A stretch of DNA of 64,000 nucleotides from Candidatus Pyrohabitans jungbluthii (lineage in GTDB: Archaea > Hydrothermarchaeota > Hydrothermarchaeia > Hydrothermarchaeales > BMS3B). How positions within the stretch are numbered: position 1 is the first letter of the stretch; each line of letters opens with the position of its first letter. Of the stretch, positions 7,831 through 46,216 are shown in pieces. The translations under genes were made by a program, and so were the position numbers. The notes beneath the pieces were generated by a model. The model was not told the DNA's origin. It searched no databases and saw nothing but the letters and a program-made list of their open reading frames with translations. The stretch lies in assembly GCA_002010065.2 (NCBI GenBank), contig MTMD02000008.1, forward strand, positions 288,001 through 352,000. Direction: 5' to 3'.

Positions 7831-7904
7831 GGGCCCGTAGTCTAGCTGGTTATGACGTCGCCTTGACACGGCGGAGGTCCGGAGTTCGAATCTCCGCGGG
7901 CCCA
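7831..7904 (+). tRNA. tRNA-Val(GAC)
   Basis: GGGCCCG acceptor stem, anticodon arm TCGCC-TTGACAC-GGCGG, T arm CGGAG-TTCGAAT-CTCCG, discriminator A. No intron and no encoded CCA. Confidence 0.95.
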
Positions 7905-8722: not shown

Positions 8723-8794
8723 TGGGCCCGGAGGGATTCGAACCCACGACCGCCCGGTTATGAGCCGGGCGCTCTACCGCTAAGCTACGGGCCC
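8723..8794 (-). tRNA. tRNA-Ile2(CAT), agmatidine type
   Basis: Reverse complement GGGCCCGTAGCTTAGCGGTAGAGCGCCCGGCTCATAACCGGGCGGTCGTGGGTTCGAATCCCTCCGGGCCCA. CAT anticodon with G1-C72/G2-C71 and an Ile-type acceptor stem, not the A1-U72 of initiator Met. Confidence 0.85.
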
Positions 8795-40538: not shown

Positions 40539-41039
40539 ATGGCAATGGCGGAGTTACCCACTGTACCCTATCATCCTACACCTCATGACAAGGCTAAGGA
40601 GCTTCTATCTTTGGCGGAACTCAGCGAGGGCGAGGTGCTCTTTGACCTGGGCTGCGGCAAGGGAAATATACTCATAGTTGGCGCCGAGGAGTTCGGAGCG
40701 CGATGCGTTGGAATAGAGAAGGATGCAGAGCTGGTGAGGGAAGCGTGGGAAGAGGTTAAGAGGCGCGGACTTGAGGACAGGGTGGAGATAATCCATGGGG
40801 ATATCTTTGCTCCCGAGTTCTGGGCGCACTTAGGCGGCGAAGGCAGCGCAGTTGTGCGCAACGCAGACGTCGTGGCAATATACCTCAACTTCGACATGCA
40901 CGAAGTGCTAAAGCCCATGCTTGAGAAGGAGCTGCGCGATGGCACTCGCGTGGCGAGCTTTGAGTTCTTTGTGCGCGGCTGGAAGGTTTATAAAGAAAAG
41001 CCAATGATGTTTGTTTTCAAGAAGGGAGATGGATTTTGA
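40539..41039 (+). CDS. Class I SAM-dependent methyltransferase (small protein-lysine MTase-like)
   Basis: VPYHPTP, LFDLGCGKG, GIEKD, HGDIF, ADVVAIYL and GTRVASFEF. Confidence 0.88.
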   Translation: MAMAELPTVPYHPTPHDKAKELLSLAELSEGEVLFDLGCGKGNILIVGAEEFGARCVGIEKDAELVREAWEEVKRRGLEDRVEIIHGDIFAPEFWAHLGGEGSAVVRNADVVAIYLNFDMHEVLKPMLEKELRDGTRVASFEFFVRGWKVYKEKPMMFVFKKGDGF

Positions 41040-41077
41040 GGTTCCAGAGGAAACACAGGAAACTGAGGCGAAGTAAT

Positions 41078-41093
41078 AGAAAATATTTTATAC
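41078..41093 (+). promoter_or_regulatory. BRE/TATA promoter for the candidate ncRNA
   Basis: AGAAAA-TA-TTTTATAC; TATA centre is about 26 nt upstream of G41116. Confidence 0.55.
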
Positions 41094-41115
41094 TATGATG
41101 TACAATAATAGACCT

Positions 41116-41258
41116 GCGGGCTCGGTAAGAGCTCGGCGACGCTGCTTCGGCAGCAACGCCGGCACAGGCCTCCTCCTTGAGGAGAGCTATGTGTGAGAGG
41201 AAGGCTGATCTGCCTCTTTGAGGCAAGAGAGCCAGACTCTCGGCCTTGCCGAGCCCGC
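41116..41258 (+). ncRNA. Candidate structured ncRNA, four-way junction (family not recognised)
   Basis: 14-bp closing stem GCGGGCTCGGTAAG/CTTGCCGAGCCCGC enclosing three hairpins (GCTGC-TTCG-GCAGC; CTCCTC-CTT-GAGGAG; TGCCTC-TTT-GAGGCA). GC-rich island in an AT-rich spacer, with a T-tract after it. Confidence 0.75.
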
Positions 41259-41266
41259 TCTCATTT

Positions 41267-42496
41267 TTATGCTGATTTTCTTCTGTGCAGTTCCTCCGCC
41301 AGCATGGGCAAAAACACACCTATGTCGGTGACCACACCCAATGCTTGAGCGGTACCTCGGTCTGTGAGCTTTGTTACCGTCGCGGGGTTTATGTCCACGC
41401 ATATCGTTTTGACACTGCTGGGCAATATGTTGCCCACAGCTATGCTGTGCAGCATTGTGCACATCATAAGCACCAAGCCTACGCCTCGAAGATGGCGGCG
41501 CATCTCGCGCTGAGCCTCAAGCACATCTGTAATCACCTCAGGTAAGGGTCCGTCGTCGCGTATGGAGCCAGCGAGCACATAGGGTATGCCGCGGCGAATC
41601 ACCTCGTACATTATTCCAGCCTTAAGCTTACCCTGCTTAACAAGCTCCGCTATGCCACCAGCCTTCATAACCTCATTTATCGCGTAGAGGTGGTGGCGGT
41701 GACCGCCTTCAGCAGGCCTCCCTGTCTTGATGTTTACTCCCAGAGAGGTGCCGAAGAGCTGAGCTTCGATGTCATGCACCGCTAAGGCGTTGCCAGCGTA
41801 GAGCACGTCTATGTAGCCCTCGCGTATCATCCTCGCCAAAGCTGGCGCTGCACTCGTATGAACTACCGCAGGCCCGACAACAGCCAAAACCTTCTTGCCC
41901 GAGCGCTTCACCTCGAGTATTGCCTCGGCGATCTGTCTGATCAACGGCTCCGCAGGCTTTTCACTGCTCACGCGGCTGCGCATGAACTCAAATACAGAAA
42001 AGCCCCGCGGCCTCTCCGGAGGCTCAATGCGAATTCCGCTCTGCCCTACAACGACGAGGTCCCCCTTCTTAATCTCGCCTATGGGCTTGCAGTAAGCGCG
42101 CTTCTTCTCTGGTTCAACCACAATTGCTGTGTCCATCTCAATGTCCTCTACCTCAACCCACTCGCCATCAAGGAGCACGTAGGTGGGGTGGTTGGTGGTG
42201 GAGTAAAAGCCATCGGGAAGAGTCCTGTCTTTTGGCGCGGGCTTTAACCTCAGCTCCTCAACTTCAGGAACTCTCGCTCCAACCTTTCGCAGCTCCCCCA
42301 GAATTTCATCAAGTTGCTCCCTTGTCTTCGCCTTTACCAGTATTCTGGCATAGCTGGGGTCGGTTTTGTGCTTTCCTATGTCGAACTGGAGCACCTCAAA
42401 GTCGCCGCCCATGTCCATTATGGTGTCAAAAACCTTTGGGAGAATGAAAGAGTCAATTATATGCCCTTTAAGCTCAATCTCTCGCACTGCCACCAT
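41267..42496 (-). CDS. TIGR00300/LOR-SDH family protein (AgrE/ArgZ C-terminal-like ornithine cyclodeaminase)
   Basis: [52 protein letters not shown] and TKLTDRG. Confidence 0.88.
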
Positions 42497-45722: not shown

Positions 45723-46063
45723 TCTCATCACCTTTTGATAAAATATAGTAGTACCCATAATATTTATTATTTTTCCAGCAATAATGGATGTTTTAATAAT
45801 AATTGGCGTTTAATTGGTCGCTTTAATGTTCACAAATGTTTATATTCGTGTATTATTGTAAAACAAGCCAATACCTCTTTTTGCGCTTTAGTCCACATCT
45901 ACGAAATATAAAAATTCATGGCCGTTATGTTTCGAAAAGTTTCTCTGTGGTCATTTCCATAATATATGCCAGATTTATTGGCATTTGGTCAAATCATGGT
46001 AATCAATGCGTCATTACACAGCTACCTCGCCAAAATCGTAGGTATTTTGGCTACTTCATTCCA

Positions 46064-46176
46064 GGTACTTCGTCACCCTATCGTGCTTCGCACGAAACGG
46101 GTAACTTCGTCACACCGGAAGCTTCGCGAGACGGGTAACTTCGTCACCCTATCGTGCTTCGCACGAGACGGGTAAC
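46064..46176. repeat. Three tandem units (37/34/37 bp) of a palindromic REP-like repeat
   Basis: CTTCGTCACCCTATCGTGCTTCGCACGA(A/G)ACGGGTAA at 46068 and 46139, with variant CTTCGTCACACCGGAAGCTTCGCGAGACGGGTAA at 46105. Confidence 0.85.
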
Positions 46177-46216
46177 CCCCAGTAAAAAATTTATTCCCCG
46201 CCAGCCTGGTTATACC

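Follow-up and report, generated by a model that had tools for sequence, protein, structure and literature searches.

A 64,000-nucleotide stretch of DNA from Candidatus Pyrohabitans jungbluthii (GenBank assembly GCA_002010065.2, contig MTMD02000008.1, positions 288,001 to 352,000), called the window here and numbered from its first letter, contains on its plus strand an element of about 145 nucleotides (nt) that folds into four helices meeting at one junction. The best explanation of this element, and I think a probable one, is that it is an independently transcribed, single-copy gene for a compact non-coding RNA that, as far as can be detected, is confined to one archaeal order. The family to which it belongs is well supported: it comprises 21 sequences from seven taxonomic families, with extensive compensatory change and a conserved promoter module specific to the gene. 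Apart from the universal RNAs and the guides, very few stable RNAs are known from Archaea, and the Hydrothermarchaeota, archaea of hot vents, are uncultivated. The compact, tetraloop-capped, thermostable junction would make an attractive structural subject, and the gene can be pursued by metatranscriptomics, by pull-downs and by probing of its structure. Its reach is modest: the family keeps to one order, can be lost, and is a solid new motif that overturns nothing.

The fold in the source genome

The closing helix, P1, runs from G41116, its first base and the putative transcription start, to C41258, its last. An earlier note on this DNA had drawn P1 and three arms, and the drawing holds: a direct reading of the window finds the sequence and all of the drawn helices in place, and unconstrained minimum-free-energy (MFE) folding of 41116-41262 on the plus strand gives the same four-way junction, with the arms abutting and no linker bases between them. 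The helices stand as they were drawn; only two details change. In the MFE fold, the 14 base pairs (bp) of P1 are followed by a bulged A15 and then by two or three further pairs, and in arm 3 a loop previously drawn as 4x4 contains UCU paired with AGA.

The 5' strand of P1 (GCGGGCUCGGUAAG-a-GCU) occupies 41116-41133. It is followed by arm P2 at 41134-41161 (CGGCG-ac-GCUGC[UUCG]GCAGC-aa-CGCCG, with helices 3 and 4), arm P3 at 41162-41194 (GCACAGGC-CUCCUC[CUU]GAGGAG-a-GCU-a-UGUGU, with helix 5) and the longest arm, P4, at 41195-41241 (helices 6-8). P4 is built from a basal helix GAGAG/CUCUC, a loop GAA/AGA, a helix GGCU/AGCC and an apical stem closed by a UUU loop. The 3' strand of P1 (GGC-CUUGCCGAGCCCGC) fills 41242-41258, its pairing supported by the MFE fold, by covariation and by the end pairing described below. 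An unpaired tail, UCUC (41259-41262), then an A and TTTTT (41264-41268), complete the element on the plus strand, and the T-run is a probable archaeal oligo-T terminator.

The predicted fold is far more stable than chance would give. Its energy is -95.0 kcal/mol, compared with -61.1 +/- 4.4 for dinucleotide-shuffled sequences (z -7.79), and none of 200 shuffles folded as stably. The RNA has a GC content of 64%, against 51% for the genome, which is 1.99 Mb in 15 contigs and 99.95% complete. The earlier note had placed the RNA on the plus strand, and fold energy, model scores and frequent G-U pairs all favor that strand: the minus strand gives a weaker fold (-83.4, z -5.47) and scores about 26-41 bits, compared with 131-151 bits for the plus strand, in all three of the covariance models introduced next.

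Homologs and their range

By DNA similarity, the element is present in all four of the other genomes of the genus (97, 91, 85 and 82% identity), and no match to it appears in the other 36 genomes searched. More distant relatives were sought with three covariance models built in turn, each from the matches of the preceding round: R1 from 5 sequences of the genus, R2 from 5 diverse sequences and R3 from 13. Their E-values are rough. R1 matched 6 of 11 genomes of the family and 7 of 35 of the order, and R2 matched 12 of 38 genomes of the class. With R3, the search of related genomes that the earlier note had proposed, with an analysis of covariation to follow, finds homologs in 18 of the 38 (11 of 21 among high-quality genomes), and compensatory change in the family is strong. 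The homologs fall into seven families of one order (f1 6/10, f3 2/2, f4 2/4, f5 2/3, f8 1/6, f9 2/2, f10 2/2); R3 gave no match in families f2, f6, f7, f11 and f12.

In a sample of 151 genomes, searched with stricter filters and with only 21 candidates scored per genome, all 16 positives lie within this one order, and none of the 113 archaeal genomes from outside the class matched. A scan with an exact pattern, which detects close look-alikes only, picked out 15 stretches, 7 archaeal and 8 bacterial, from all GTDB species genomes. All 7 archaeal stretches match R3, at 67-142 bits, and their contigs are titled as metagenome-assembled genomes (MAGs) of Candidatus Hydrothermarchaeota, Candidatus Pyrohabitans or 'Methanobacteriota archaeon'. 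None of the 8 bacterial stretches matches. The same pattern found 17 stretches in metagenome contigs, one of which (L047) is a true member as judged by R3. The family numbers 21 sequences in total, whose cores measure 124-162 nt. Its detectable range is a single archaeal order, which the titles of the named contigs identify as Hydrothermarchaeales. The pre-filter of the genome search is lossy (the order-wide run of R1 missed a genome, G009, that the family-wide run found), so non-detection is not absence and the figures for range are lower bounds.

Both the DNA search and R3 find one copy in the 1.99-Mb source genome. The earlier note had held that many dispersed copies would mark the element as a miniature inverted-repeat transposable element (MITE); because the copy is single, a MITE or other dispersed mobile repeat is ruled out. 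Most of the genomes that bear a homolog likewise have one copy, two matches being found only in G029 and G018. The pair in G029 consists of near-identical copies with near-identical flanks at contig ends (L052:200-353 and L053:1456-1609), and they seem to be variants from different strains within the bin, not paralogs. G018 (loci L051:1501-1660(+) and L060:1501-1657(-)) has a divergent second copy scoring 51 bits, which keeps a TATA box and ATAGAAAA and lacks the upstream TTCCA..GGAAG element described below. Where MAGs are fragmented, the gene is often found less than about 500 nt from a contig end (L013, L014, L050, L052, L053, L056), which could reflect assembly breaks caused by strain variation or by coverage differences near the gene.

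Compensatory change and conserved structure

The consensus predicted from the sequences of the genus contains 58 pairs, and 6 of them show compensatory change. For the wider family, MAFFT misaligned the arms of divergent members, and alignments made by the covariance models were used in its place. Two of these (A4 and A8) hold rows from the reverse strand; A4 was set aside, and the six such rows of A8 were dropped. A6 and A7 were built with E-value cut-offs that exclude such rows, a step that also left the copy G029b out of A7. In the 13 sequences of A7, standard pairs fill 92.8% of 696 cells, both sides of the pair have changed in 49 of 56 pairs, and the covariation score is 0.603. None of 500 shuffles reached these values. 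When the 3' partners were slid by 1-3 columns as a control, pairing fell to 35.5-45.7% and the pairs with double-sided change to 10-17. The change is spread across the arms: it affects 6 of 6 pairs in helix 3 and 4 of 5 in helix 4 (both in P2), and 11 of 12 in helix 5 (P3).

Two results do not pass through any such alignment. Unconstrained MFE folding gives P1 and three arms in 19 of the 21 sequences (13 of 14 in one set and 6 of 7 in the other); the exceptions are G018 and G020, and G012, a close relative of G020, folds canonically. Moreover, an alignment-free comparison of the two ends of each of the 21 sequences, the first 8 nt against the 8 nt that precede the tail, finds a pair in every one of 168 cells; single positions show up to three pair types, and 20 of the pairs are G-U.

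What is conserved is shape more than sequence. P1 varies from 13 to 18 bp across the family, and the arms it encloses abut with 0-4 nt between them, none at all in most members. Every arm carries an internal loop. Short apical loops (UUCG, UCCG, CUU, UUU) substitute for one another, and the UUCG loop sits on different arms in different lineages. Few positions are invariant or nearly so. They include the two terminal pairs, G1-C and C2-G, and, at the base of P4, the helix R-A-R-A-G / C-U-Y-U-Y, whose 5' strand is polypurine in all lineages and in which A147, A149 and G150, with their partners, do not vary in the 13-sequence alignment. Above this helix lies a symmetric purine loop (GAA/AGA, GA/GA, AA/GA or AA/AA), and many members have an unpaired A or AA in the 3' strands of P2 and P3. 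In 17 of the 21 sequences the tail is N-CUU, and N is A in 13 of the 21.

A promoter module that travels with the RNA

The earlier note had pointed to a TATA box, a transcription factor B recognition element (BRE) and the run TTTTT as signals of a gene, and comparison bears this out, in that the spacing of the promoter elements and the T-run are kept while the flanking genes differ. In the source genome, the TATA box TTTTATAC lies at 41086-41093 (+), 22 nt from G41116, with its heptamer at -29 to -23 relative to that base. Directly 5' of it, at 41074-41083 (+), is a purine tract TAATAGAAAA that is called BRE-like from its position. Further upstream, at 41042-41068 (+), is a conserved element that consists of a palindrome TTCCAGAGGAA (41042-41052) followed by CACAGGAAAC and TGAGG; it lies just past the stop codon of the upstream open reading frame (ORF). 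The TATA box, the BRE-like AATAGAAAA and the upstream TTCCA..GGAAG element accompany the RNA across its homologs. Twenty upstream regions, the metagenome copy excluded, align over about 75 nt to the consensus tccA..gG...CA..gGAAg...Agg....g.aATagAAAA..aTtTATa, in which the BRE-like block aATagAAAA is conserved and a TATA-like heptamer stands at equal distance, with G1 about 22 nt after it. The tRNA genes of the source genome share the layout from TATA box to start. At the other end, a T-rich run follows the tail in 19 of 21 3' flanks, those of G005 and G017 being only interrupted A/T-rich sequence.

The genes on either side are not kept. Within the genus, a small S-adenosylmethionine-dependent methyltransferase lies upstream and a convergent ArgZ-like/LOR-SDH gene downstream, the latter, on the minus strand, ending at 41267 beside the element. 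In family f10 the upstream neighbor is DUF4416 and the downstream one a solute-binding protein; a sister genus has a 345-aa protein with no Pfam domain, and further lineages have BioY, HEAT-repeat, RACo, arginase, PIN and other genes. Because the promoter module and the RNA are both conserved while the flanking genes differ, they move as one unit. A link to the adjacent methyltransferase, which the earlier note had raised, is not supported, since that adjacency is limited to the genus and a metagenome relative.

The combination TTCCA..GGAA followed 15-45 nt later by a TATA box occurs once in the 1.99-Mb genome, at this gene. Conservation of the palindromic element suggests that the gene is controlled by a dedicated factor. 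An analogy may be drawn, for the promoter only, with the U6 and 7SK genes of eukaryotes, whose promoters of the small nuclear RNA (snRNA) type combine a proximal sequence element with a TATA box. In both cases a gene-specific element lies about 25-45 nt 5' of the TATA box of a small structured RNA gene. They differ in that Archaea have a single RNA polymerase and the candidate element here has no known factor. It would be a rare handle on gene-specific control of an archaeal non-coding RNA gene.

The module has in one case outlived the RNA. In G007, a genome 96% complete, a promoter remnant that can still be recognized stands after the ortholog of the 345-aa gene, without an RNA body. No copy turned up elsewhere in G007 in the class searches with R2 and R3, and downstream of the 345-aa gene in G007, G006, G008 and G010 nothing was found at E<=1 beyond noise of 10-12 bits. 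Because G007 keeps the promoter remnant without the RNA, the RNA is dispensable or at least replaceable, and its loss suggests an accessory role.

What the RNA might do

How might such an RNA work? The explanation I favor for the gene as a whole is a compactly folded RNA with its own promoter. A tentative extension of it, with the chances somewhat against it, is that the RNA serves as a protein-binding scaffold or decoy, accessory to the cell and under a regulated promoter of its own. It would be transcribed from that promoter, whose upstream palindromic element would bind a regulator, would act through its shape and internal loops and without base-pairing to targets, and would not be essential. 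What would be recognized, on the grounds that remain after the mechanisms considered below, is the shape together with a few purine or adenosine loops. Binding of L7Ae is possible, as is an Sm-like protein on the U-rich tail. More tentatively still, the RNA may be the core of a clade-specific ribonucleoprotein, or another shape-dependent RNA, with a terminus like the acceptor of tRNA and an snRNA-style promoter controlled by a specific factor. It would then represent a new class of stable RNA in Archaea that comes with a transcription signal of its own.

Several points weigh against the explanation. The existence of a transcript, where it starts and ends and how abundant it is are deduced from the DNA. 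The A7 alignment was fitted to the structure of the model, which biases it toward pairing. No gene is consistently adjacent to the RNA, and no protein partner emerged from the analysis. The tandem purine mismatches of P4 and P2 are symmetric and, on inspection only, lack the 3-nt bulge of a kink-turn (K-turn), a motif in which a helix is followed by such a bulge and then by tandem sheared G-A/A-G pairs, giving an asymmetric loop. Because the loops do not look like canonical K-turns, L7Ae binding, though possible, is not specifically indicated. Finally, the RNA is undetected in 20 of the 38 genomes of the class, some of them 97-100% complete, which could mean loss or divergence beyond the reach of the model.

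A different view is that the RNA mimics the acceptor end of a pre-tRNA, its unpaired N standing in for the discriminator base. RNase Z would trim it and CCA would be added, or tRNA enzymes would handle it in some other way, and it would serve as a tRNA-like decoy or a tagged RNA. It has the cloverleaf topology, one closing helix formed by the ends plus three arms. Its first two pairs are always G-C and C-G, and an unpaired 3' N precedes a pyrimidine-rich trailer. The tRNA genes of the source genome lack an encoded CCA and have pyrimidine-rich trailers too (the gene at 7831-7904 ends GGGCCCA and continues cttttaac), and they have a TATA promoter about 25 nt upstream. The 13-18 bp of P1 approximate the stacked acceptor and T stems of tRNA. 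Nonetheless, the mimic is unlikely. The RNA is twice the size of tRNA, and P1 far exceeds the 7 bp of an acceptor stem. It has no D, T or variable loop and no 7-nt anticodon loop, the loops of its arms being 3-4 nt, and the junction is without the linker bases of tRNA. Neither ARAGORN nor the Rfam tRNA model (RF00005) matches it, and the CUU and T-run are explained equally well by an archaeal terminator.

It is also improbable that the RNA is catalytic or binds a ligand, with loops of adjacent arms docking across the junction to form an active site or pocket. The model for such an arrangement is the hairpin ribozyme, which, like the core of U1 snRNA, is a natural RNA with a linker-free four-way junction. 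In these RNAs, as here, four helices meet with few or no junction bases, and the internal loops of neighboring arms could dock side by side. The junction is linker-free in most members of the family and each arm has its internal loop; the conserved unpaired A of the 3' strands of P2 and P3 and the purine loops of P4 would suit A-minor docking, if docking occurs. A ribozyme or aptamer core is nevertheless unlikely because so few nucleotides are invariant: outside the helices there are far fewer than in known cores, the hairpin ribozyme's included. No Rfam ribozyme or riboswitch family matches, and no cleavage-site motif was identified. Nor would the RNA control a downstream gene as a riboswitch or cis-regulatory leader, because its own terminator follows and the next gene in the source genome is convergent; the downstream genes moreover vary by lineage.

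I give equally little credence to a trans-acting small RNA that pairs with mRNAs through a short seed. The promoter with its apparent regulatory element would suit one, as would the RNA's dispensability in at least one lineage, and its CU-rich and purine-rich tracts could pair with ribosome-binding regions. Those tracts, however, pair with each other in the covarying helix 6. An antisense seed is unlikely because nearly all bases are paired and the apical loops, of 3-4 nt, vary, so that a conserved single-stranded seed could lie in the U-rich tail alone.

Relation to described RNAs

The earlier note had seen no hallmark of a known class, and its proposed check against Rfam agrees. When the 4227 covariance models of Rfam 15 were run on the 64-kb window at gathering thresholds, they matched only two tRNAs, at 7831-7904 and 8723-8794, and nothing at the element. 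Relaxing the threshold to E<=10 for the 551 bases of 40900-41450 brought in four weak matches resembling small nucleolar RNA (snoRNA) or long non-coding RNA at 40991-41092, none on the RNA itself, and at E<=1 the 15 loci with divergent homologs gave only 5S and tRNA genes elsewhere in the loci. ARAGORN found no tRNA gene in 40900-41450.

The weak matches of C/D snoRNA type (40993-41075, +), which overlap the methyltransferase ORF at its 3' end, are probably due to chance. They lie far below gathering (sn668 at E 0.14, SNORD35 at E 0.45, SNORD91 at E 3.9), and their C box, AUGAUGU, is not conserved in three of six genus-level sequences (G003, G002 and the metagenome copy). C/D guide RNAs have C (RUGAUGA) and D (CUGA) boxes that form a K-turn, and H/ACA guides have hairpins with pseudouridylation pockets followed by an ACA box. 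By inspection, no C/D or ACA boxes lie between or after the arms, and none are conserved. A guide RNA of either kind was rejected.

Could the RNA be a highly diverged member of some described family, such as tRNA, 5S, signal recognition particle (SRP), RNase P, guide, Y or HgcC-type RNA? Because the family evolves fast in sequence, remote homology could be missed, and the growth in matches from R1 (7 of 35 order genomes) to R3 (18 of 38 class genomes) illustrates the speed. Even so, I consider it very unlikely, given the failure of this copy and of the 15 divergent ones to match at the relaxed thresholds and the lack of C/D or ACA boxes. The source genome has full-length RNase P RNA (C8:80134-80490, 193 bits), SRP RNA (C2:240017-240335, 219 bits) and 5S rRNA (C2:515496-515616, 91 bits) elsewhere, all above cut-off. 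The Y RNAs and bacterial Y-like RNAs are similar in being small and stable, with their ends paired in a long stem that has conserved sequence nearby, a U-rich 3' end and a shape conserved more than sequence. They differ in having a large internal loop where this RNA has a tight junction, and there is no Rfam Y RNA match. A search for their partner, Ro60/TROVE (PF05731), gave no match in the source genome and detected the controls, D. radiodurans and B. thetaiotaomicron. HgcC, HgcE-G and SscA are orphan families in Rfam of GC-rich structured RNAs from hyperthermophilic archaea. Like them, the present RNA is heavily paired, stands out by its GC content from a lower-GC genome and would be independently transcribed, but it matches none of them in sequence or structure and comes from a different host clade.

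Just as improbable is the absence of any RNA gene, the element being a nested palindrome that acts as DNA (a recombination or replication site, or a MITE relic) or a 3' untranslated region or terminator of the ArgZ-like gene on the minus strand: that strand folds well too (z -5.5) and the ArgZ-like ORF ends beside the element, but the copy is single, the G-U pairs are frequent and strand-specific, the minus strand scores about 100 bits lower in the models, and in other lineages the ArgZ-like neighbor is absent while the plus-strand TATA box and T-run stay.

A literature search found no title concerning an RNA of this kind, and the main text of the two main papers on Hydrothermarchaeota genomes (PMC6775978, PMC6946796) makes no mention of non-coding, small or structured RNA. 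As judged by its sequence and predicted fold, the RNA is new at the level of the family, with no described family matched. The comparative evidence supports what the earlier note had suggested, a stable structured RNA of an undescribed class, and the signals flanking the gene argue for its independent transcription.

Other features near the RNA genes

The 345-aa protein mentioned above (L028:380-1417(-); C5:17366-18388 in the source genome) is 62-82% identical across the taxonomic family and adjoins the RNA in one genus only. In G020 and G017, a cluster of stable RNA genes (L055:193-763, L057:122-496), made up of 5S rRNA and two tRNAs or of three tRNAs, is found 0.7-1.4 kb from the RNA gene. 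There is no such cluster near the gene in the source genome.

The window also contains, at 46060-46180 on the minus strand, a short dispersed palindromic repeat, GTTACCC-GGAAGC-N3-5-GCTTCC-GG[CT]GTGACG(AAG), in the form of three tandem units of GTTACCC, a hairpin of about 20 nt and GGTGACGAAG. Further copies in the source genome lie at C2:239951, C2:241699, C2:248576, C2:515213, C8:191606, C8:249239, C10:10841, C14:20314 and C15:15161. Several copies of this repeat stand directly 5' of the genes for tRNA-Ser, tRNA-Lys, tRNA-Thr and SRP RNA.

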